A stretch of 64,000 bases of DNA from an uncultured virus (IMG/VR IMGVR_UViG_3300020050_010858) (Duplodnaviria > Heunggongvirae > Uroviricota > Caudoviricetes): IMG/VR virus record IMGVR_UViG_3300020050_010858. The stretch is one strand, 5' to 3'. The number at the start of each line of letters is the position of its first letter. Position 1 is the first letter of the stretch. Shown piece after piece: positions 2,342 through 40,308 of this stretch. A program made the translations under genes and the position numbers. The notes beneath the pieces are model-generated. The model worked only from the letters and a program-made list of their open reading frames with translations, ran no database searches and had not been told where the DNA came from.

Positions 2342-2513
2342 AAGAACAACGTCCAGAATTTAAGGCGTGGTGCGATTTGCAGCGCCATCAAATCAAAGCG
2401 AATGAAAGCGCAATCGAGATGCTAAACGTGGAAATTGACGCCACAATCCGCCTCATAACGGCTCAAAAGAGGGCGCTGGCCCTGGCAATCAAAAACGAGG
2501 AAAAGAATACGCC

Positions 2514-2831
2514 ATGAACGCGCCATACCAAGGAAAAACCGTTTACATCGCCGGAGCTATTTCCGGCGATCCGGACTATAAGGCAAAGTTTGCAGCCGCT
2601 AAAGCGCACTTACTAGCCAATGGGGCCGCTCGCGTTTTGAATCCTGCGGAATTGCCGGACGGATGGACTTACCAGGAATACATGGCGCATTGCATGCTTA
2701 TGGTGCAACGGGCCGAGATGATTGTCCCGCTGTCTGACTGGGATAGAAGCCGCGGCGCAATCGCTGAAGTCGGCTATGCGCAAGCGTGCCGCATCCCTGT
2801 TGACTACTCCTACCCATACCAACTCCCATGA
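2514..2831 (+). CDS. DUF4406-family protein (nucleoside deoxyribosyltransferase-like)
   Basis: VYIAGAISG...LNPA...W..SRGA..E pattern. Confidence 0.8.
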   Translation: MNAPYQGKTVYIAGAISGDPDYKAKFAAAKAHLLANGAARVLNPAELPDGWTYQEYMAHCMLMVQRAEMIVPLSDWDRSRGAIAEVGYAQACRIPVDYSYPYQLP

Positions 2832-3979
2832 ACACAGACAACACCGAGCTACTCGCCAGCCTTGAGAGCGAGATTCTAACGTTGCACGAAACCGTAGCAG
2901 CGAAACTAGATGACCTGAAAGCCAACGTCATCGAAACGGCCACACTTGGCGCAAATTTGGGTGATTACGTTGAGCAATGGATTAAAGCCTACAAGCTCAA
3001 GACATCGGAAGAAGTGACTAATTGCCTCCGAGCATTTGGGCTTCGGGACGATGTGACGAGGTTTGCAAAACTATTCACTGGTCAGCTCGGATGGGGAAAG
3101 GCCCTGGACTCCGCCTATATTCAACGCCGGATGAAGGAAATGCCTCCGGTCGTTCAACAGGCCGTGCAGGGGTTGAGACAAACGAAGCCAAATCTGTTTC
3201 GGCACGCAGTTCAGAAACTTGGAAGCCTCATCAGTGGCGCGGATGCCCTTTTCACCGCCGGCACGTACGCGATGGTTTATGACTATCAGTTGTCGCAGGC
3301 AAAGGATTCTGGACTGATTGGACAGGAGGCGGAAGAATTCGCCCGGAATGAGGCAGAAAAGGTCACTGACCGTATCGCACAGCCAATCCGGCCAGGAGCT
3401 CGTTCACTGTTTGAAAACACATCCACACAGCCACTAGCGCGCGCCGCGTGGGCATTTGCATCTGAAGCGCGCAAGAACCTAGCCCTTTCCGCGTTCGCGA
3501 TGGCGCAAAGACCAATGGAAGAGAAGCTCCGGACGCTGGCCTATGTTGTTATATTTAACTCGGCGCTGGCCGCAATCATCCGTAACGCATGGCGGGATGC
3601 AAAGGACAATGACGATGACGAGGCATTTGATGAGAAGAACTGGAATCTAAAGAAATTCGCAGTCTCAACACTGACTGAGCCGTTTTATGGAATACCCGTG
3701 ATCGGAAATGTGATCCAGTCTACCGCATACAACGCAGCGGGAGTGTATCAGCAAAACGGAGATTTGTTCTCGTCGTTCTCGAATGTCGTAGGGCCAGCAA
3801 CTCGGCTTCCTGATCTTGTAACCAGCAACCAATCGGCAGAACAATCATTCAAGGATGTAGACGCTATCTTGAGTGCTGCAGGCTTGTTCAATCCAGACAT
3901 GGCCGCCGCGGCATCACTGTCACATCTGGCAAATGACCTTTTCCGTGTAGGGAAAAACGCAACTCATCCTGATGAATAG
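2828..3979 (+). CDS. Possibly chimeric ORF; C-terminal part resembles the end of a large internal virion protein
   Basis: Composition changes after ~aa 80; sits directly upstream of a T7-like tail fibre. Confidence 0.4.
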   Translation: MNTDNTELLASLESEILTLHETVAAKLDDLKANVIETATLGANLGDYVEQWIKAYKLKTSEEVTNCLRAFGLRDDVTRFAKLFTGQLGWGKALDSAYIQRRMKEMPPVVQQAVQGLRQTKPNLFRHAVQKLGSLISGADALFTAGTYAMVYDYQLSQAKDSGLIGQEAEEFARNEAEKVTDRIAQPIRPGARSLFENTSTQPLARAAWAFASEARKNLALSAFAMAQRPMEEKLRTLAYVVIFNSALAAIIRNAWRDAKDNDDDEAFDEKNWNLKKFAVSTLTEPFYGIPVIGNVIQSTAYNAAGVYQQNGDLFSSFSNVVGPATRLPDLVTSNQSAEQSFKDVDAILSAAGLFNPDMAAAASLSHLANDLFRVGKNATHPDE

Positions 3980-4061
3980 GCATTCGATAATTTTTGCCCA
4001 TTTAACGCAAGTGAATCCTATAAGATATTTACTTTCACATAATTTAATCTAGAACAAAATC

Positions 4062-7016
4062 ATGTCCCTGCCATCTGAACAATCTGAAGTTTCCTATGTG
4101 GGTAACAGCTCAAGCGCCGTACCGTATCCGATTCCATTTAAATTTTTCTCGTCAACCGATATCGTTGTTATTGTTACGGATTTGATGGGGGTGGAAACAA
4201 CCCTCGCCTTAACCACGGATTACACTGTTAGCGGTGGTGATGAAGAAGCCGGGGCGACTGGCGGAATGACTACGGCAGTTGCGGTTCCTGCGACAAGCAC
4301 AGTTAGGATTCTGCGCACGGTTCCTCTCACGCAAGATACCGTATTTACAGATATTGGGAAATTTCCATCGGCTTCGGTGGATCGTTCTTTTGACAAACTG
4401 ACAATGGCTTTACAGCAGGTTCAAAGAGATTCTGATGCAAACTTTGAACGTGTTCAGCCATTTGCACTTGTGCCGCTTGCAACCGATTCGGAAACCATCG
4501 CCGGCGCCAGTGATGAGATTGCAACCTCTCCCGCCGGCGTAAGAGCCGCTGTGGATCAAGCTGCGTTTGAGGCTGGCAGCTATTTACTATCAACTCAAGC
4601 CCAGGCGCAAGGCGGTACGAATAATACGACCGTTATGAGCCCGTTGCGTGTGGCTCAAGCGATGCTCCCCGAATTCCGTTGCGCATCTTCTGAGGCTGGT
4701 ATCTTGGCGGCGGTTTCCGCTGCTACAGCGGCTGGGGGCGGAATAATTCTTCTTCCCAATGCAGACATTACCCTTACTGCTCCACTGCCGGTGAGAAGCT
4801 CACTGATCTACAAGGGCGTTCCAATGAAGATCACATATACCAATGGGTATGACGGTCAGAACAATCTTCCGCCTTCGGGCGATGGGAATGGCACAATTCT
4901 CCGTGGCGATGGAACTTTCAATGGATTTGAGGCAAACGCGGTTGATGCAACCGTAGGATTCAACGGAACCGGAAACGATACCGCGAACGCTGCGCTCACT
5001 AACTGCGGAATCGAAGATGTCGCTTTGGTCAACTTCTTGAACGGAGTGAAGATTGGCGCTCGCTGCCAAGCCGGGCCTTTTTACTCCACATTCCGAAACA
5101 TCTATGCTTTTGGGTGCGTCAATTGGGGCCTCTATTTCGAGAACGGCATTCACAATTCTTATCACCGAATTTATAGCTTCGGATGTGGGAACGGGTTTGC
5201 AATCTGGCAATCGAATGCGCAGACCGGAAACTCCTATTTGGAGGATATTTTTGTTCAGCCGACGACGGCCACGGCCAATGCTGGGAGGCAGGCGCGCGGA
5301 ATTTCGTTTCGAGCCAGAAATTCTGCTATTTTTGGGGGATTGGATGGAACCAGGATACAATGCAATCGGTTCCAAGCAACTCCGTTAGGTGGTGGATCCT
5401 TTCCCTTCGGCACCGGAATCACATCGAGCGCTCTCACAATCGGCTCTGCAGAGATACCGGTTGCCGATGTCACTCAGTTTATTCTTGACTTGCCAGTCTC
5501 AGTCTCAGCGACCACAAGCGGATTCACGACCCGCAAAATTTATTTTGTTCGAAAGATTACAGGCACAACAAGCGGCACCATCCAACTTAGCCTGACGGTG
5601 ATGGGCGCACCTGTTTTGGCGTCCGGAACAACCGCCATAAATATTGTGTCGCAGGGATTTTCTCCCCTGGAAGTTGTTGGAATCGCTTCGCACGACACTA
5701 TCGGAGCGCAAACGCCGTCAAGCAATAGCGTGGTTTCCGACGGTAATGGCTACAATCCAGATTTTGTAACAGGGCAACCGGTGGTGGTGTCGACTACCGG
5801 CACTTGCCCTGGCCTTACCAGCGGAGGCACATATGCTATCATTGTTGTTTCTCCTGGAGTTTACAAGTTTGCGACTACCGCAGCGAACGCCTTGGCCGGA
5901 ACCGCAATTACCCTCTCGACTGCATGGACTGGCACATTGACAGTTGGCTTAACTTGTTCAATGCCAACCAACCATTTTACCGGACTAGACCTCGAGGCAA
6001 ATGGAACGGCGGCAATCATCGCACAAAACGCCACAGACAATACTTACGTCTGCGGGGGGGTCCTGCGCGGCGGCTCGAATTCTGATGGTATCCAAACGCT
6101 CGTCGGCCGGAACTTCACCGGCTCGTTTTACGCCAGGGGAAATTACACGACGGACGTGGATTCAGGAGATATTTTATTTACGGGTGTCCGTGATTTATCA
6201 AAGTCGCTCGGAGCGGTGGGAATCGGCACATGGCGCGATGGCGTGAGCCAGATTGTATCTAATCTCAACTCGGGATTATTGACGACCAACTATACTGCGG
6301 CCTCTTTCAAAACTCGCTACAATACCGGAAGCCAATTTATCGCAAAGGGGGGTTCTGAAGCAGAGTTTGTTTATGCGACAAATTCTACTTCCCTAACCTT
6401 TGTAGGAATATCTGCCGGAACCATTGTTTACAATGGGAGCGCAGCTTTTTCTTGGACGCTCCCAACGGTTACTGACGCCAATGATTACGAATCATTGGTG
6501 GGCATTAAATTCAAAATCATGAATGCCACCGGTTTTTATGGCACGTTGAACACTGACGGGACGCAACAGTTCAATCGTGAGAGCAGCCACTCGGCAGAAA
6601 ATATCCCGGCATTTACGACAATTGTAGTGGTTGCGGTTAAGGCGGCAGACGGCACCTTGTTCTGGCAGATTGAAAGCAAATCGCCGGATAAGTATTTGCA
6701 ACAACTCGCATACTCCGCGACACGGTCGGTCGATTTCCGTGTGTCGAAAAATGTGCTCATCGGAGCGGTTACAGCTGACATGACGATCAGCAACCCGCCC
6801 GTGACGGTTGCAAATTTCTCGGACGTGACCGTCGAGATCATCCTAGACTCTTTCGCTTCTGGAACTCGCAATATTACGTGGGGTTCTGCCTACAAATTCC
6901 CGGTTGCTTTCGTGCAGCCCACTGTCATCACGGATGGAACGCGACGCACGGTCGTTCACTTTCAAGCAGGGTCAAACGGCGCCTTCTTTGCCCTTGGCAC
7001 GAACGTCTGGTATTAA
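4062..7016 (+). CDS. Tail fibre/tailspike with T7 gp17-like N-terminal adaptor
   Basis: Y.GN....YPIPFKFF...DYTV...DRSFDKLTM N-terminus; Gly/Thr/Asn-rich beta-helix-like body. Confidence 0.8.
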   Translation: MSLPSEQSEVSYVGNSSSAVPYPIPFKFFSSTDIVVIVTDLMGVETTLALTTDYTVSGGDEEAGATGGMTTAVAVPATSTVRILRTVPLTQDTVFTDIGKFPSASVDRSFDKLTMALQQVQRDSDANFERVQPFALVPLATDSETIAGASDEIATSPAGVRAAVDQAAFEAGSYLLSTQAQAQGGTNNTTVMSPLRVAQAMLPEFRCASSEAGILAAVSAATAAGGGIILLPNADITLTAPLPVRSSLIYKGVPMKITYTNGYDGQNNLPPSGDGNGTILRGDGTFNGFEANAVDATVGFNGTGNDTANAALTNCGIEDVALVNFLNGVKIGARCQAGPFYSTFRNIYAFGCVNWGLYFENGIHNSYHRIYSFGCGNGFAIWQSNAQTGNSYLEDIFVQPTTATANAGRQARGISFRARNSAIFGGLDGTRIQCNRFQATPLGGGSFPFGTGITSSALTIGSAEIPVADVTQFILDLPVSVSATTSGFTTRKIYFVRKITGTTSGTIQLSLTVMGAPVLASGTTAINIVSQGFSPLEVVGIASHDTIGAQTPSSNSVVSDGNGYNPDFVTGQPVVVSTTGTCPGLTSGGTYAIIVVSPGVYKFATTAANALAGTAITLSTAWTGTLTVGLTCSMPTNHFTGLDLEANGTAAIIAQNATDNTYVCGGVLRGGSNSDGIQTLVGRNFTGSFYARGNYTTDVDSGDILFTGVRDLSKSLGAVGIGTWRDGVSQIVSNLNSGLLTTNYTAASFKTRYNTGSQFIAKGGSEAEFVYATNSTSLTFVGISAGTIVYNGSAAFSWTLPTVTDANDYESLVGIKFKIMNATGFYGTLNTDGTQQFNRESSHSAENIPAFTTIVVVAVKAADGTLFWQIESKSPDKYLQQLAYSATRSVDFRVSKNVLIGAVTADMTISNPPVTVANFSDVTVEIILDSFASGTRNITWGSAYKFPVAFVQPTVITDGTRRTVVHFQAGSNGAFFALGTNVWY

Positions 7017-34741: not shown

Positions 34742-35092
34742 TCAAGCTCTAATTTGCACTATGTCAGCAATCAATTCATGCGCGTAATTTTCCGGCACCC
34801 TTACCCCTTTCACTGTCCTGAAGTGTTTGCCGGTTAATCTGAAAAACAAATAGCCGGACATTACGGCATGGTTCCCTTTTCGCGCATCGCGCTCTCTACT
34901 CTTTACACTGGTGTGCCCCATACCATTACCGTCTAACTCAATCAGGATTTTCGTTTCTCCCCGGGTCAGCCTGACGTCATATTCGAAACGCTCGCCGGGG
35001 ATTGTCTTTTGAGTCTCGTACTTGAACCCGGCTTTCTGCAAAGGCTTTTTGAAATTCAAATCAAAACAGATTTCCAGTTCTGACTTTTTCAT
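34742..35092 (-). CDS. Vsr/DUF559-like endonuclease
   Basis: RFEYD...LIELDG...H......D..K.N.A. Confidence 0.75.
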   Translation of the reverse strand: MKKSELEICFDLNFKKPLQKAGFKYETQKTIPGERFEYDVRLTRGETKILIELDGNGMGHTSVKSRERDARKGNHAVMSGYLFFRLTGKHFRTVKGVRVPENYAHELIADIVQIRA

Positions 35093-35313
35093 TTCTTCTT
35101 TCCCCGGGGAAGAAAAAGAAAACGGTCCTCGACGCGAACGCGTTTGACAGTGTAAGCCTGACACTCGGCATTCACTCGCTTGCCGGTCTTCATGCTTGAA
35201 AGCCATGTATGGATGGCGCTAACACTGGTTTCGAAATGCTTTGCAAGTTCGGCAACCGTGAAACCGCTTTTCCGCGATGGAAGTTTTGACGGGTCTAAAA
35301 GAATTCTACTCAT
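35089..35313 (-). CDS. HTH DNA-binding protein
   Basis: FTVAELAKHFETSVSAIHTWL. Confidence 0.65.
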   Translation of the reverse strand: MSRILLDPSKLPSRKSGFTVAELAKHFETSVSAIHTWLSSMKTGKRVNAECQAYTVKRVRVEDRFLFLPRGKKK

Positions 35314-36190: not shown

Positions 36191-36435
36191 GCTCAAAAAT
36201 GGTTTTCACGGGCTTCGATGGCGAAGCGTTTACAATAGAGGAAACGAAAGTTTTCTCAAGTTCGGTAGGGATGAAAAAAGCTCTGGCGTCCGGCGGGATT
36301 ACGTATGCCGCTAATTATTCGCGCAAGCGCATAAAGATTGTTCACATTAAAGACGGGCTGCTTTTTGAATATTCAGGACCGGAAAAGTCAGGCCGACAAA
36401 TGCTTGCCGGGTATCCGGTAAGGGAAAAGAAGTGA
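36187..36435 (+). CDS. Hypothetical protein
   Basis: Translationally coupled on both ends. Confidence 0.5.
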   Translation: MSSKMVFTGFDGEAFTIEETKVFSSSVGMKKALASGGITYAANYSRKRIKIVHIKDGLLFEYSGPEKSGRQMLAGYPVREKK

Positions 36436-38627
36436 AGCTCGAAGAATACCAGAAGCCACACGTCAAGCGGCTAATCGAAGTTCTTAAGACTAAACGTGGT
36501 GCGCTTGACCTGAGCCATACAGGAACAGGTAAGACTGTTACGGGTTGCGCGGTCGTCCAGAAACTGGATAGACCGCTTGCCGTGGTTGCGCCCCTTGCAG
36601 CGTTGCCTGGATGGGAACGAACCGCGAAAGCGTTTGACCTGGACTTCAAAGCGGTCAACTATGAATCGGTGACAAAGAAACGCGGGTTCGTGTCTGCGTC
36701 CAGAATTGACATTCCTAAAAATGCAATCGTCATCTATGACGAAGGGCACAAGTGTCTGACGGGTTCCAGTCTAATTCAAACTGAAGTAGGGCTTATCCCT
36801 ATTGAAGAACTGGTCATGGAAAGGCTTGACGTAAAGGTGGCCAGTTATAACTTTAGCTCCCATGAGATTGAATACAAACGCATCAAAGCAAGATTCTATA
36901 AAACAAGTCCCATCGAGTTCTACGGTATTAAAGCAGGGCAGACGAAAGTCTTTTGCACGGCGGAGCATAAAATCTGGACGGACTCCGGGTGGAAAACTGC
37001 GAAAGAAATCCTTGAAAGGAATCTGCAAGGAGTGCGGGATTGTGTTCTATTATATGCGCCCTGGAAGAAAGCTCTGTTCGAGGAAGTGTTCCGCCGTTTG
37101 GAGATACAGGCAACCCGATTTGTTGGAAGCGCACCGGGAGCGATGCAAGAACAACCCAGGGAACGCGAAACTCTTGCGAAGTCCCGCTATGAGAGCCGCC
37201 AGCAAGAAAAGGATGATCGAAAGAAACCCTATGCGCTTGGAAAAAAACCGCCTCAAAGTCTCTCAGACGTTACGGAGGATTGGCCACGGACCGAAAGTTC
37301 GGGGCGGAAATGGAAAGCCGTCACCGTTATCACACAAGCGGTTCTGGCGTATAATTTCATACGACAAACGTTTCAAAGAGGAATTTCCAATCTCTATTGT
37401 CGGGCACAGAATACTAAAAGCCCCGACGTGTTACAAACTGGATTTTGCAATCCCGGCGTTACGCCTGGGAATAGAGATAGATGGTGGTTCGCACAACTCC
37501 CCCAAACGTCGGGAAGCGGACCAGAAGAAAACTCGAATACTCGCTGGACTCGGGTGGACAGTTGTGCGATTTACGAACGAGCAGATACGGAAGGAACCGG
37601 AGAGGGTAAAGAACGAAATCAATACGTTTTTGACATTGAAGTAGAAGATAATCACAATTATTTTGCAAACGATATTCTAGTGCATAATTGCAAGAACTAC
37701 AAAACGCAGAACGCGAAAACAATGCTTCGAGTTTCGAGAGCAGGTTTTAAGATCCTGACACTTTCCGCAACGCTTGCCGACCATGCCGAACAGCTCCGCG
37801 CATGGAATGACGCTTTTCGTTTTTCGGATGCTTACTCGTTTTCTGAGTTCATGTACCGTTGTGGTTACTACTACGAAAAGAACCGCTGGGGCGGGTCGTG
37901 GCTTCCACGTTATGAAAATGCGATTGAGCGCACCAAACGGGTCATAGCACCTTTCAGTTCTATTATGACCCGCCCGCCAGGGTTCAAGAATCAAATCAAC
38001 GTGACAGTGATTTCTTCTAAAGAAGACAAAGCACTTGCAAAACTGTATGAGGATACGTTCAAGCTTCTCCGATCTGGCGATAAGAAGCGAGACGGGGACC
38101 ACCTGACAAGAATGCTCAGGGCTCGTCAGGCGAGTGAGCGCGCAAAGATTGACTACGTCATTGAAAAGATTGTGGACTTGATGGCCGAAGGGTTTTCGGT
38201 TCCCGTGTTTTGCAATTTCAATAACACGATTGACGAGCTTGCAGCGCGCCTGTCAGGTTTCAATCCTGCAATCATCCGGGGCGGACAGAAGCCCGGCGAG
38301 CGTGAAAGTGAGCGTGTGAGATTCCAGGAGAACAAAGCCCGCGTCATTCTATGCAACATAGCATCCGGGGGCGTGGCGCTTGACCTGCATGACGTAAACG
38401 GTCGCCCGCGTTACTCTTTGTTCTTCCCGCCATTGTCCGGCGTGGAGTTAAAGCAGGGTCTCGGGCGGATTGACCGCCGGGGAAGTCTCAGCGATTCAAC
38501 GCAGGAAATCATTTTTTCGGACGTGCCCGCCGAGGTCCGTGTCTATGAAATCTTGAAAGAAAAATTAAGTGCACTTGATACGCTGCACGATAGCGAAATT
38601 GACATCCTGGGAGGGGTGAACGTATGA
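36432..38627 (+). CDS. SF2 (SNF2-like) helicase containing an intein
   Basis: TGTGKT, DEGH, LSAT, Q.LGRIDR motifs. Confidence 0.9.
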   Translation: MKLEEYQKPHVKRLIEVLKTKRGALDLSHTGTGKTVTGCAVVQKLDRPLAVVAPLAALPGWERTAKAFDLDFKAVNYESVTKKRGFVSASRIDIPKNAIVIYDEGHKCLTGSSLIQTEVGLIPIEELVMERLDVKVASYNFSSHEIEYKRIKARFYKTSPIEFYGIKAGQTKVFCTAEHKIWTDSGWKTAKEILERNLQGVRDCVLLYAPWKKALFEEVFRRLEIQATRFVGSAPGAMQEQPRERETLAKSRYESRQQEKDDRKKPYALGKKPPQSLSDVTEDWPRTESSGRKWKAVTVITQAVLAYNFIRQTFQRGISNLYCRAQNTKSPDVLQTGFCNPGVTPGNRDRWWFAQLPQTSGSGPEENSNTRWTRVDSCAIYERADTEGTGEGKERNQYVFDIEVEDNHNYFANDILVHNCKNYKTQNAKTMLRVSRAGFKILTLSATLADHAEQLRAWNDAFRFSDAYSFSEFMYRCGYYYEKNRWGGSWLPRYENAIERTKRVIAPFSSIMTRPPGFKNQINVTVISSKEDKALAKLYEDTFKLLRSGDKKRDGDHLTRMLRARQASERAKIDYVIEKIVDLMAEGFSVPVFCNFNNTIDELAARLSGFNPAIIRGGQKPGERESERVRFQENKARVILCNIASGGVALDLHDVNGRPRYSLFFPPLSGVELKQGLGRIDRRGSLSDSTQEIIFSDVPAEVRVYEILKEKLSALDTLHDSEIDILGGVNV
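36753..37688 (+). mobile_element. Intein (312 aa) inserted just after helicase motif II
   Basis: N-terminal CLTG, block B CTAEH, block F/G VFDIEVEDNHNYFAN.ILVHN followed by Cys. Confidence 0.93.
36862..37644 (+). CDS. Zn-finger plus Vsr/DUF559-like endonuclease nested in the +1 frame of the intein
   Basis: CKECG...CSRKC; YKLDFA...IEIDGGSH...D.KK..L...GWTVVRFTNEQI; true start uncertain. Confidence 0.85.
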   Translation: MRLNTNASKQDSIKQVPSSSTVLKQGRRKSFARRSIKSGRTPGGKLRKKSLKGICKECGIVFYYMRPGRKLCSRKCSAVWRYRQPDLLEAHRERCKNNPGNAKLLRSPAMRAASKKRMIERNPMRLEKNRLKVSQTLRRIGHGPKVRGGNGKPSPLSHKRFWRIISYDKRFKEEFPISIVGHRILKAPTCYKLDFAIPALRLGIEIDGGSHNSPKRREADQKKTRILAGLGWTVVRFTNEQIRKEPERVKNEINTFLTLK

Positions 38628-39655
38628 AAAAGAATCAATACTATTTGTCGGGATCTTCCTTTAGCATCGCGCAGAAATGCGCCGCGTCCGTTACAATCGA
38701 GTTTTCAAAGAAGCTTATGAGCGATGGGCAGGAAGCGAGCGAAGGAACCGATGCCCACGAAGTCATCGCAAACGATATTGAATCAATGCGCCGATTTCTT
38801 CCAGTGAAACACGACAAGCTCACAGAGTACGTAGAACGCAGGCTAGAAACTGATTACGATAAGTTCTGGTTGTCTGGCGGAGTGGATTATTTCGCAATCG
38901 ATTACCGTGACGGTGTGCTTTATGTGACAGACTGGAAAACGGGTCCGATGGGCATCGATCATTTAGGGCCAGCCCAGCTTGAGTTTTACGCCTACTTGAT
39001 TCTAATGGATCTTGCAGCGTCCCAGCGTAAAAAGATTACGAGCGTTATCCTGGCGCTCGTGTCCCCTCGCCTGAATCAAAAGAAAACGTTTACCGTTTCG
39101 GTTAATGAAATTCTGGCACTGTCTGAGAAGTTTGACGCAATCCTGCAAGCAATCGAGAAAAAACAGAAGCCTCAAACCGGGGAGCATTGCAGGTACTGTA
39201 ACAAAAGCGTGGTCTGTCCTGAATTGCGCGCCGAGCTGATCCGATTTACTGAGCCGAAATTCCAGGGCCAGCTTGTGAAGCTCACGGCCCAGGACTTAAA
39301 GCTTTTGACGATTGCGGCAACCAAGATCGATGACATAAAGAAATACGCGAAAGAGCTAATCGAGCACGGAACACCGATTCCGGGTACGCGTCTTGAATGG
39401 CGAAACTCTGCCCGCGTGTTCTCTCAGGACATAGACGGCGCAAGCATTGCAAAGGCCCTCGGGGTCAGATTGGACAGCATTTCCGAGGTTAAAATAAAAT
39501 CCCCGGCCCAGCTTGAAAAAGCGGGTTTCACATTGGACAAAGTAAATGACTTTATTACGCTGACCGGCGGAATGCAATTAAAGATCGATGTAGAGGGAGG
39601 GGCAAAGGCACAAAAGACGAAACCGCAGAAAATCAAAGTAAAAGGAAAAAGCTAA
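38624..39655 (+). CDS. PD-(D/E)xK exonuclease (DUF2800/Cas4-like)
   Basis: EGT.AH, GGVD, DWKTG, QL..YA, GEHCRYC..C. Confidence 0.85.
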   Translation: MKKNQYYLSGSSFSIAQKCAASVTIEFSKKLMSDGQEASEGTDAHEVIANDIESMRRFLPVKHDKLTEYVERRLETDYDKFWLSGGVDYFAIDYRDGVLYVTDWKTGPMGIDHLGPAQLEFYAYLILMDLAASQRKKITSVILALVSPRLNQKKTFTVSVNEILALSEKFDAILQAIEKKQKPQTGEHCRYCNKSVVCPELRAELIRFTEPKFQGQLVKLTAQDLKLLTIAATKIDDIKKYAKELIEHGTPIPGTRLEWRNSARVFSQDIDGASIAKALGVRLDSISEVKIKSPAQLEKAGFTLDKVNDFITLTGGMQLKIDVEGGAKAQKTKPQKIKVKGKS

Positions 39656-40308
39656 TGAAACAGCAAGGAAAAGCAAAGAAGTTTACAGGAAAGCCGGGGA
39701 TTGAGTCCGTTACGGTTTCCGAAAAATCCGTGGAAGTGATGTTTAAAAACGTTCGCCTTGTCTATGACGGAATTTCGGAAGTTTGTGAGTCAGAGTTTGA
39801 AGGGACAAAGGCTTACAATTTCAAAGCAGGGCTTGAAATCCCGGAAGGGAAAGAACTTACCGCGCTCAAGAAAACGATCCGAGACCACTTTAAAGCAATG
39901 AAGCTTAAAGGCTTTGCGCCTGACGTAGCCATCGAGCATTTCGACGAAAAGAAATTCAAAGCATCCAACCAGGAAGGCTTTGCGCTTCTCTACCCGACGT
40001 CACCAGCGATTGAGACAGAGGACGGTTTCCAGCCAAAAGGGAAACTGTTTGTAAACCCGTCGCACGAAGCGCACTATGCTGGTTGCTACGTTGACGCAAA
40101 GGTTGCGTTTGTTGCAAACACGCGCGGTGCGATTACCATTAAAGACTACCTGAACGCAATCAAGAAAGTTGGTGATGGCGATCCGATTTCAGGTGCTCAA
40201 GATCCGTTTGGCGATTCGCAATCGAAAGCCACGGTCAAGGGCGTTCGCCGTCAGGAAAAGCCAGACGAAAAACCAAAGTCCGGTAAGAAGCCGGTAAAGA
40301 AGAAATAA
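39655..40308 (+). CDS. ssDNA-binding protein (DUF2815-like)
   Basis: NVRL.Y, YAGCYV, LNAI.KV.DG.P. Confidence 0.75.
   Translation: MKQQGKAKKFTGKPGIESVTVSEKSVEVMFKNVRLVYDGISEVCESEFEGTKAYNFKAGLEIPEGKELTALKKTIRDHFKAMKLKGFAPDVAIEHFDEKKFKASNQEGFALLYPTSPAIETEDGFQPKGKLFVNPSHEAHYAGCYVDAKVAFVANTRGAITIKDYLNAIKKVGDGDPISGAQDPFGDSQSKATVKGVRRQEKPDEKPKSGKKPVKKK

Follow-up and report, generated by a model that had tools for sequence, protein, structure and literature searches.

Inteins with an endonuclease encoded outside the intein frame have already been described in print, for nuclease classes or orientations other than the one presented here. Phillips, DeSimone and Gogarten (bioRxiv 10.64898/2026.09.14.751524) report a LAGLIDADG endonuclease in a "+2 ORF" of a bacterial dnaX gene, and they credit Gorbalenya 1998 with the first proposal of this layout. 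Gosselin, Arsenault and Gogarten (bioRxiv 10.1101/2025.01.02.630785) describe non-canonical actinobacteriophage inteins, and predict that elements of this type are under-annotated. In the fractured genes of Dassa et al. 2009 (PMC2677866), the intein is split and a free-standing Vsr-like endonuclease gene lies between its halves. Taylor et al. 2011 (PMC3239194) present I-Bth0305I (PDB 3r3p) as the prototype EDxHD homing endonuclease.

We have analyzed a sequence of 64,000 nt (the window) from an uncultured Caudoviricetes virus, IMG/VR IMGVR_UViG_3300020050_010858. It contains a helicase gene interrupted by an intein, and a nuclease ORF is found in the +1 frame inside this intein. The dnaX case, as described in the preprint, is similar in several respects: The intein is contiguous, its own frame is open and its middle part is predicted to be disordered. 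The endonuclease ORF overlaps on the same strand, with a low dN/dS and values above 1 in the intein frame (in our family, this is found in the relatives), and intein-free and intein-bearing alleles coexist. The N-terminus of the window intein has 36–39% identity with cyanobacterial DnaX inteins, over 12–13% of the query. The enzyme and its host are different: In our family the enzyme combines a zinc finger with an EDxHD/Vsr-like domain, is read in the +1 frame and is found in phage SF2 helicases.

The actinobacteriophage inteins, as reported, also have their endonuclease outside the intein frame and an in-frame middle without recognisable structure. Nevertheless, their Vsr-like endonucleases are antisense, and the same-strand case is endonuclease VII-like and lies in frame 3. 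They are found in genes for DNA polymerase, minor capsid, terminase and thymidylate synthase, rather than in a helicase. The fractured genes share with our locus the nuclease superfamily, hosts which are phage replication or repair genes, and an overlap of the nuclease 3' end with the C-terminal intein part (6–69 bp in the 15 loci of PMC2677866). On the other hand, they are two trans-splicing genes, while the window contains one 731-codon ORF; since no stop is present in the intein frame, the window intein would be a single cis-splicing polypeptide. I-Bth0305I is the best structural match of our nuclease, with a profile match (E 0.02) and the conserved E, D, H, D residues. It comes from a group I intron and has N-terminal NUMOD/HTH motifs for DNA binding, whereas the window nuclease carries a zinc finger with four Cys and is encoded within the coding sequence of an intein.

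As comparable arrangements with other nuclease classes have been published, the novelty implied by the original prediction was too high. Among the papers listed by our literature search, we have found no published example of a contiguous intein with a Vsr-like/DUF559 nuclease in the +1 frame of the same strand, although the supplements of the preprints might hold some.

The helicase gene and its intein

The features of the locus are listed in Table 1. The helicase is encoded by a single uninterrupted frame, which in a profile search matches ResIII (E 2.8e-4) and Helicase_C (E 6.3e-7). We have detected intein-less helicase orthologues (P0019–P0024), with 415–421 amino acids and 58–61% identity. 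When compared with P0019, identity is 59% for the N-extein (residues 1–108) and 61% for the C-extein (residues 418–729), and the insertion site appears in this orthologue as DEAHRC-KNHKT, without an intein. An intein-less allele is also found in a contig of run X9, where position 36752 is joined to 37689 and exactly 936 nt are absent. Contigs with and without the intein co-occur in this run, so a target for homing exists.

Table 1. Features of the helicase-intein-nuclease locus. Positions are those of the window.
Feature	Position	Strand	Evidence
Helicase ORF, 731 aa	36432..38627	+	ORF list
N-extein: N-terminal part of SF2 (ResIII/SNF2-like) phage helicase, end ...VIYDEGHK	36432..36752	+	ResIII, Helicase_C, P0019
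Contiguous class-1 intein, 312 codons, Cys1...His-Asn312, then +1 Cys	36753..37688	+	Intein_splicing 51.3 bits, TIGR01443, TIGR01445, X9 contig, P0019
Intein N-terminal splicing domain, blocks A-B (TAEH), residues 1-90	36753..37022	+	AF2 and alignment
Intein-frame linker, residues ~91-265, stop-free	37023..37547	+	No Pfam domain, low pLDDT, dN/dS of relatives
Intein C-terminal splicing domain: RVDSCAIYE strand, blocks F-G, VHN; 5' part co-encoded with the nuclease C-terminus	37548..37688	+	AF2, consensus
C-extein CKNYKTQNAK... up to the helicase C-terminus	37689..38627	+	Helicase_C 6.3e-7; P0019 identity
+1-frame ORF inside the intein, 260 aa	36862..37644	+	ORF list
Putative homing-endonuclease gene, +1 frame, 210 codons and TAG, start taken as TTG 37012	37012..37644	+	Homologue starts, AF2
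Zinc finger CKEC...CSRKC (FCS/MYM/L24e-like) of the nuclease	37024..37089	+	Conservation, weak profile matches
DUF559/Vsr-like (EDxHD-type) catalytic domain	37432..37632	+	PF04480, 3hrl, Foldseek
Upstream ATG as alternative start of the +1-frame ORF; zinc finger 54 codons further on	36862..36864	+	ORF list

The intein boundaries are DEGHK/CLTG...TAEH...VHN/CKNYK (slashes mark the junctions). All class-1 motifs are present: CLTG at 36753, TAEH in block B, and VHN/C at 37688. Pfam Intein_splicing (PF14890, E 1.6e-12) gives 47.9 and 51.3 bits, compared with a curated cut-off of 35.8. The intein C-terminus profile TIGR01443 (E 2.2e-8) gives 34.1 bits for a cut-off of 15.6, and the N-terminus profile TIGR01445 (E 4e-5) 24.5 bits for a cut-off of 24.5. 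C1, H72 and N312 are invariant across 54 aligned inteins, whose C-terminal consensus is RVDSVEVLE...VYNLEVEG...LVHNC. In the AF2 model, pLDDT is 91–96 in each ten-residue block of residues 1–90. It falls to 45–64 in the middle (residues 91–260), and it is 95–97 for residues 291–312, in a C-terminal splicing domain with a strand at residues 270–275. A Pfam search of the intein frame at E≤1 matched the splicing domain alone and no further family. From the intact motifs and the selection against stops in its frame, we infer that the intein splices in cis.

The nuclease encoded in the +1 frame

The nuclease stop, TAG at 37642–37644, is 16 codons upstream of the last Asn of the intein. Residues 191–257 of the 260-aa ORF match DUF559 (PF04480) with E 3.6e-14 and 53 bits, the cut-off being 20.6; PF18741 gives 37.6 bits, slightly under its cut-off of 38.2. 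A PDB profile match to 3hrl has E 1.2e-12. The AF2 model has a pLDDT of 91.6, and its top Foldseek match is I-Bth0305I (3r3p, E 9e-4, TM 0.77), followed by 3hrl (TM 0.70) and Vsr (1cw0/1vsr, 0.51–0.53), with all TM values normalised on the target.

Thirteen residues (C5, C8, C22, G99, G101, Y141, D144, E155, G158, H161, D170, W182 and N189) are invariant in the 61 nuclease sequences we have compared, and the window nuclease keeps all of them. They include three of the zinc-finger cysteines, the fourth (C26) being conserved in at least 90%. Profiles of L24e and MYM zinc fingers also match the nuclease zinc finger weakly (E 0.02–0.2). D157 is likewise conserved in at least 90% of the sequences and kept in the window. 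According to the composite motif given in PMC3239194, the conserved E, D, H, D residues, with D144, E155, D157, H161 and D170 as candidates, would be the catalytic set. The protein is a predicted homing endonuclease, which would cut the intein-less helicase allele.

These results agree with most of the original prediction. Splicing-domain profiles, empty orthologues and the X9 contig all point to a contiguous helicase intein at DEGHK/C, its middle has neither stops nor a recognisable domain, and the +1 frame does encode a zinc finger and a DUF559/Vsr-like nuclease. When both frames are searched with HMMs, as had been suggested, intein and nuclease domains fall in different frames.

Related loci

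A search of one viral collection gave 412 matching stretches, of which we have examined the best 80; the analysis covers 79 viral loci that encode relatives of the nuclease. They form 61 clusters, defined at ≥80% nuclease identity. In this sample the intein frame is stop-free across the nuclease in 71 loci, or 55 of the 61 clusters, with open host frames of 512–1878 aa; the nuclease is in the host frame in none of the 79 loci. A Hint/intein Pfam match at E≤1e-5 is found in 50 of 54 host ORFs; the exceptions at this threshold are L006, L019, L048 and L077. An SF2-helicase family is matched by 43 of the 54. In 53 of 55 cases, the host frame reaches HN[CST] 4–19 codons past the nuclease stop.

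In four clusters (L043, L055, L072/L074 and L075/L078) the intein is split, as in the "fractured genes", and the +1 frame relation is kept. Contiguous and split forms also share the overlap of the nuclease 3' end with the C-terminal intein part. In a quick, midpoint-drawn and unrooted tree of the 61 nucleases, the split clade has a support of 100 and its nesting among open forms a support of 86. No direction of evolution is claimed, since this tree is unrooted. The overprinted form had been suggested as a possible intermediate between contiguous and split inteins: The presence of split forms with the same frame relation in this nuclease family is no more than a hint in this sense.

The window nuclease is on a long branch (2.16) of this quick tree. 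Its nearest other relative has 41% identity, in the trimmed alignment of the tree itself. A scan of viral contigs with the window protein gave only the same phage as a close relative; record G001 is this same phage and is not independent of the window.

Start of the nuclease

Genes neighbouring the helicase in the window carry ribosome sites of the GGAGG/AAGG type. Near the zinc finger, the window has neither an ATG nor a Shine-Dalgarno sequence, and the sole candidate is TTG 37012, found behind gcgaaagaaatcc. No Shine-Dalgarno is found either before this TTG or before ATG 36862. In 45 of 54 relatives a start codon is present at most 10 codons upstream of the first Cys, in 35 of them ATG, and eight have Shine-Dalgarno cores of 5 nt. 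Free-standing homologues (143–259 aa) start 3–12 residues ahead of CxxC. By analogy, the most likely start is TTG 37012, with ATG 36862 as the alternative.

The weak initiation context, a TTG without Shine-Dalgarno, might also mean that the +1 ORF is a silent relic. The intein would be fixed, its frame kept open by selection on the helicase alone, at a late stage of the homing cycle. The long branch of the window nuclease agrees with this idea, and it has no close relatives in which selection could be measured. Against it, the ORF has 210 codons free of stops, keeps every residue that is invariant in 61 sequences and has a confidently predicted fold, and the intein-less allele in run X9 is an available homing target. 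We consider this explanation unlikely.

A programmed +1 ribosomal frameshift after block B, giving an extein-N/intein-N/nuclease fusion, appears less probable still. It is suggested by the nuclease frame of the window, open for 63 codons upstream of the zinc finger, and by nine relatives (L019, L026, L028, L034, L044, L053, L054, L065 and L068), which also have about 58–63 open upstream codons and no clear start. The opposite situation is found in 23 of 54 relatives, where a stop in the nuclease frame lies at most 12 codons upstream of the zinc finger. The nearby ATG of 35 relatives, several with a Shine-Dalgarno, and the free-standing homologues, which begin at the same place, also argue against frameshifting. 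By reading the sequence from 36990 to 37030, we have found no recognisable slippery or prfB-like site. Furthermore, the upstream codons show no protein-level conservation among relatives in which this region is open over a comparable length: When about 60 upstream codons of 12 loci are aligned in both frames, no conserved Met or protein motif is found in the nuclease frame, and conservation tracks intein block B. Internal initiation thus remains the preferred reading.

Stop codons and selection in the two frames

The intein frame of the window has no stops over the 260 nuclease codons, while 10.9 are expected from synonymous shuffles; none of 2000 such shuffles gave a stop-free intein frame. 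An intein-frame stop requires a nuclease codon ending in T before a codon starting with AA, AG or GA, so a synonymous choice of NNC instead of NNT is sufficient. In the ORF from 37012, codons which precede AA, AG or GA end in T in 0 of 63 cases, compared with 34 of 147 for its other codons and 32 of 116 in an extein control. Shuffles of the 55 open cluster representatives predict a mean of 7.1 stops (2.9–15.1), with P(0)≤0.03 for each one. In the third frame, as well as in the 6 closed clusters, the stops observed are close to the shuffle expectation. The open intein frame across the nuclease goes beyond chance.

We have calculated dN/dS for 98 pairs of relatives with ≥60% identity, none of which includes the window element. 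Values are 0.06–0.28 for the nuclease, where calculable, and 0.74–3.3 for the intein frame, mostly above 1; differences are concentrated at codon position 3 of the nuclease. In 12 disjoint pairs, dN/dS in the middle zone is 0.17 for the nuclease and 1.32 for the intein frame. The last 40 nuclease codons give 0.45 and 0.74, respectively, and nuclease dS falls there from 1.17 to 0.33. In the relatives, therefore, purifying selection acts on the nuclease frame but not on the intein frame, except for the last 40 codons or so, which overlap the C-terminal splicing domain and are constrained in both frames. This evidence comes from other members of the family, since the window nuclease has no relative closer than 41%.

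The central idea of the original prediction, a separate, overprinted nuclease in an intein frame kept open as a spliced-out linker, is supported and extends to the family. It is favoured by the stop-free frame in 55 of 61 clusters, by selection on the nuclease frame only, by a confident nuclease fold against an unstructured intein-frame middle, and by contigs of four studies free of indels. The region where both frames are constrained, however, is more than a linker.

A functional domain in the middle of the intein frame, with about 175 truly dual-coding codons, is highly improbable. Distant relatives do show motifs such as GRKWK, NRDRW and LQ again in their intein frame, but these motifs sit exactly on the nuclease motifs VRGGNG, ExDGxSH and Y-K, and their recurrence is due to invariant nuclease motifs plus codon choice. 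A dN/dS of 1.32 in the middle zone of relatives, the low pLDDT and the lack of a Pfam match also argue against a domain. Finally, an artefact in which two frameshifts from sequencing or assembly compensate each other in an ordinary intein with an in-frame nuclease had already been doubted in the original prediction. We have found nothing in its favour, and on the evidence of contigs it can practically be discarded: Two further viral-contig records (L001/G001 and L002) have 100% identity over 2196 nt, contigs of four studies show 0 gaps over the zones of the supposed frame switches (36985–37038 and 37587–37653), and the same frame relation is found in 55 clusters, with none of the 79 loci having the nuclease in the host frame.

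Proposed mechanism and significance

We therefore consider it very probable that this is a mobile intein whose homing endonuclease has a gene of its own, overprinted in the +1 frame of the intein interior. Ribosomes translating the helicase would pass straight through 36753–37688. The splicing domains, residues 1–90 and about 266–312, would fold together, and the approximately 175 residues between them would be an unselected, probably disordered loop, which needs only to remain free of stops. After this, the intein would excise in cis, leaving DEGHK-CKNYK. A second, internal initiation would give a free-standing enzyme of about 210 aa, with a zinc finger, a helical region and an EDxHD/Vsr-like domain; TTG 37012 is its most likely start, to judge from relatives with an ATG and a Shine-Dalgarno at the equivalent position. 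This enzyme would cut the intein-less helicase allele, and repair would copy the whole element into it. Staying stop-free should cost the nuclease nothing, as NNT-to-NNC swaps are synonymous. For example, the invariant Tyr-Lys is TAC-AAA in the window, and TAT-AAA would give TAA in the intein frame. The 3' end of the nuclease overlaps the C-terminal splicing domain, and this region probably has a function in both frames.

Since gene callers list the long helicase ORF alone, annotations miss the nuclease, and inteins of this type are taken for mini-inteins or for decaying ones. As this layout is found in 71 of 79 loci, from the best 80 of 412 stretches, overprinted homing endonucleases may be a common route to phage intein mobility and not a curiosity. 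The family also illustrates cleanly, in nature, how a translated frame can be selected solely for the absence of stop codons. Its contiguous and split members are found side by side, and this is relevant to the origin of split inteins, which have found wide use in protein engineering. We tentatively suggest, as a possibility that we rate at somewhat less than even, that the +1-overprinted contiguous form and the split form of Dassa et al. are two states of a single lineage of inteins with an EDxHD nuclease. If this is true, a split intein would arise once the linker no longer avoids stops, as is observed here in the most AT-rich nuclease genes, and this large and mostly unannotated phage family would be a natural series for tracing and testing the origin of split inteins.

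The overlapping nuclease and its intein

The window (GC 0.51) is a phage or prophage region. The original prediction had described an intein in its helicase gene with a Vsr/DUF559-like nuclease encoded out of frame, and this description is correct in all checkable details. The intein splicing domain is found in the helicase frame (Pfam Intein_splicing, E 1.6e-12, 47.9 bits, cut-off 35.8; also TIGR01445 and TIGR01443, the N-terminal and C-terminal intein models), and DUF559 (PF04480) in the +1 frame (E 3.6e-14, 53 bits, cut-off 20.6), together with a CxxC...CxxxC zinc finger. In its own frame, the 312-residue intein has no stops, and no Pfam family besides the splicing domain is detected there at E<=1.

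Coding features of the interrupted helicase (slashes mark the splice boundaries)
Feature	Position	Strand	Remarks
SF2 helicase with intein	36432..38627	+	731 aa; ResIII, Helicase_C
Intein	Cys 36753 to Asn 37688	+	Context DEGHK/CLTG...TAEH...VHN/CKNYK
Nuclease ORF	36862..37644	+	+1 frame within intein

Structure prediction of the +1-frame protein, based on a 61-sequence alignment, gives a mean pLDDT of 91.6. The nearest structure to its C-terminal domain is the homing endonuclease I-Bth0305I (3r3p; E 9e-4, TM 0.77 on target), followed by 3hrl, a DUF559 structure, and by Vsr (1cw0, 1vsr). Profile matches among PDB sequences are consistent with this (3hrl 1.2e-12, 3r3p 0.02) and show a weak likeness of the zinc finger to L24e/MYM-type fingers. 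Residues invariant in the 61 sequences include C5, C8, C22, G99, G101, Y141, D144, E155, H161 and D170. In the trimmed alignment used for the nuclease tree, the closest relative has 41% identity. Free-standing homologues are also found (17 at E<=0.001 among 191 candidates), with 143-259 aa and 30-48% identity, whose zinc finger follows within a few residues of the N-terminus.

The intein in its own frame is predicted with confidence only at its ends: pLDDT is 91-96 for residues 1-90, 45-64 for 91-260, 63-79 for 261-290 and 95-97 for 291-312. In distant relatives, some motifs (GRKWK, NRDRW, LQ) do repeat in the middle of the intein frame. They coincide exactly with invariant nuclease motifs and are by-products. 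For example, the invariant Tyr-Lys of the nuclease is TAC-AAA in the window. The intein frame reads this as Gln (CAA), a residue invariant in an alignment of 54 inteins; TAT-AAA would give TAA.

Directly 3' of the helicase (38624-40308) are a DUF2800/PD-(D/E)XK protein (E 2.6e-23) and an Enc34-type ssDNA-binding protein (E 6.4e-8), so the helicase lies in a phage replication module of typical make-up. A 154-aa ORF (34742-35206, minus strand), located between this module and the structural one, has a weak REase_MTES_1575 match (E 4.3e-4; 20.7 bits, short of the 38.2 cut-off) and is possibly another Vsr/DUF559-like nuclease of the same phage, free-standing in this case.

Correctness of the sequence and empty alleles

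Two compensating sequencing errors could in principle have displaced an in-frame nuclease. On the evidence of contigs, this is not the case: the same 2196 bases appear with zero differences in two further viral-contig records, and contigs (rather than raw reads) from four of the nine studies which contain the stretch bridge the frame-switch zones with 0 gaps. Runs X1 (36626-37338), X5 (36985-37284), X7 (36844-37038) and X9 (36783-37292) span the first zone, and X1 (37372-37734), X5 (37587-37947) and X7 (37506-37777) the second. No indels relative to the window are reported in contigs of these four runs.

In a 541-base contig of X9 (depth 11.5), 36752 is joined straight to 37689: Exactly the 936 intein bases are absent. 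The flanks of this contig show 34 differences from the window in 524 positions. The same run has an intein-bearing contig (36783-37292), with 1 difference. The occupied allele thus occurs together with an empty one from a related phage. Intein-less helicase orthologues (P0019-P0024) have 415-421 aa and 58-61% identity; P0019 reads DEAHRC-KNHKT across the insertion site. A 792-base X5 contig (depth 27.6) matches only 37621-37653 (33 bases, in the region of intein block F), and its sequence on either side is dissimilar. It may be another intein allele with this short stretch in common.

A family of overprinted loci

Scanning viral contigs with a profile gave 467 matching stretches, 412 of which encode a relative of the nuclease. 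We have analyzed the best 80 of these 412; one (L005) belongs to the same record as G001, a 41,950-base record of the phage in the window, and was excluded, leaving 79 loci. In 71 of them, the frame which lies one base upstream of that of the nuclease is stop-free across the nuclease, within open frames of 512-1878 aa. The other 8 have 6-29 stops in this frame. The third frame contains 2-29 stops in every locus. Clustering at 80% nuclease identity or more gives 61 clusters, of which 55 are open and 6 closed.

Apart from the window, 50 of 54 open representatives have a Hint/intein family at E<=1e-5 (none at this threshold in L006, L019, L048 and L077), and 43 have an SF2-helicase family, in some cases fused to a DNA methylase or ParB-like domain. 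An HN[C/S/T] splice junction is present in the host frame 4-19 codons past the nuclease stop in 53 of 55. Open loci cover nuclease GC values from 0.33 to 0.67, so low GC does not explain their openness. Three helicase ORFs (L015:736-4371, L045:1486-5379, L082:703-4098) contain two inteins, one canonical, with an in-frame LAGLIDADG or Hom_end, and one overprinted.

Stop avoidance and selection

As a null model, synonymous codons were shuffled within the nuclease ORF, leaving protein and codon usage unchanged. For the intein frame of the window 10.9 stops are expected and 0 are present; 0 of 2000 shuffles were stop-free. The third frame has 15 stops versus 16.6 expected. The mechanism is directly visible, since an intein-frame stop arises only if a nuclease codon with final T precedes a codon starting with AA, AG or GA: None of 63 codons in this position ends in T, versus 34 of the 147 remaining codons and 32 of 116 codons in this position in the extein control. 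The same avoidance is found in 55 of the 61 clusters from the best 80 loci: Each open representative has P(0)<=0.03, with 2.9-15.1 stops expected (mean 7.1), and the six closed clusters have stop counts near expectation.

Selection was estimated on relatives of the window element, from 98 pairs of open loci with at least 60% nuclease identity. Differences are concentrated at nuclease codon position 3. Where calculable, dN/dS is 0.06-0.28 for the nuclease and 0.74-3.3, mostly above 1, for the intein frame. In 12 disjoint pairs, the region from the zinc finger up to the last 40 codons has a dN/dS of 0.17 in the nuclease frame and 1.32 in the intein frame (nuclease dS 1.17). The corresponding values for the last 40 nuclease codons are 0.45 and 0.74 (nuclease dS 0.33). 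The C-terminal splicing domain (consensus RVDSVEVLE...VYNLEVEG...LVHNC) begins within these last 40 codons, which are functional in both frames.

Initiation of the nuclease

Among 54 open representatives with a recognizable zinc finger, 45 have a start codon at most 10 codons before the first Cys (35 ATG, 10 GTG/TTG), and in 23 the nuclease frame is closed at most 12 codons upstream. A 5-nt Shine-Dalgarno core is present in eight (L013, L014, L015, L017, L032, L071, L082, L083). These features point to independent internal initiation. In the window, internal initiation is less clear than in its relatives: The only start near the zinc finger is TTG 37012, four codons before the Cys and, unlike neighbouring genes, without a Shine-Dalgarno sequence. 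Upstream, the frame stays open for 63 codons and contains an ATG at 36862.

An upstream frame open for about 58-63 codons before the zinc finger is shared by the window (36835-37023) and the SNF2/methylase-associated loci L019, L026, L028, L034, L044, L053, L054, L065 and L068, in some of which no start codon is present within 17-37 codons of the finger. No protein conservation of this stretch is seen in the subgroup.

Split and free-standing relatives

Four of the six closed clusters are split (L043, L055, L072/L074, L075/L078), with nuclease GC of 0.26-0.35. An ORF ending in intein block B is followed by the nuclease ORF, then by an ORF which starts inside the nuclease 3' end and encodes the C-terminal intein part and the helicase. 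As worked out on L043, both halves share one frame and the nuclease is in the +1 of it; 14-29 stops lie between the halves. This is the "fractured gene" layout of Dassa et al. 2009 (PMC2677866), who report Vsr-like enzymes in this split form with a 3' overlap of 6-69 bp. In a quick, unrooted tree, which gives no direction of change, the four split nucleases group together as a single clade (support 100), lying among open forms (support 86).

The two other closed members, L033 and L079, are free-standing. The L079 nuclease (2438-3079) is immediately upstream of a helicase gene (3048-4706) without an intein-sized insert, and ends inside its start. It is possibly a free-standing homing endonuclease beside a gene family invaded by its relatives.

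Comparison with known systems

Inteins with an overprinted endonuclease have already been described in print. Phillips et al. 2026 (bioRxiv 10.64898/2026.09.14.751524) describe the cyanobacterial dnaX intein, in which an overlapping "+2 ORF" encodes a LAGLIDADG enzyme. They report that its in-frame middle is disordered, that omega depends on the frame and that alleles co-exist; the first proposal is credited there to Gorbalenya 1998. Gosselin et al. 2025 (bioRxiv 10.1101/2025.01.02.630785) report actinophage inteins whose enzymes are LAGLIDADG or Vsr-like on the antisense strand, or endonuclease VII-like in frame 3, and state that Vsr-like enzymes are otherwise known only with split inteins. 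Our literature search, which did not reach the supplements of these two preprints, found no contiguous intein with a Vsr-like enzyme in the +1 frame of the same strand. The EDxHD family was defined by Taylor et al. 2011 (PMC3239194).

In summary, the dual coding is real and, in the nuclease family, selected, and the original prediction read it correctly. The case is new in its particulars: an EDxHD/Vsr-like enzyme with a zinc finger, encoded on the sense strand in the +1 frame, in phage helicases. Also new are the large family and its split siblings with the same frame relation.
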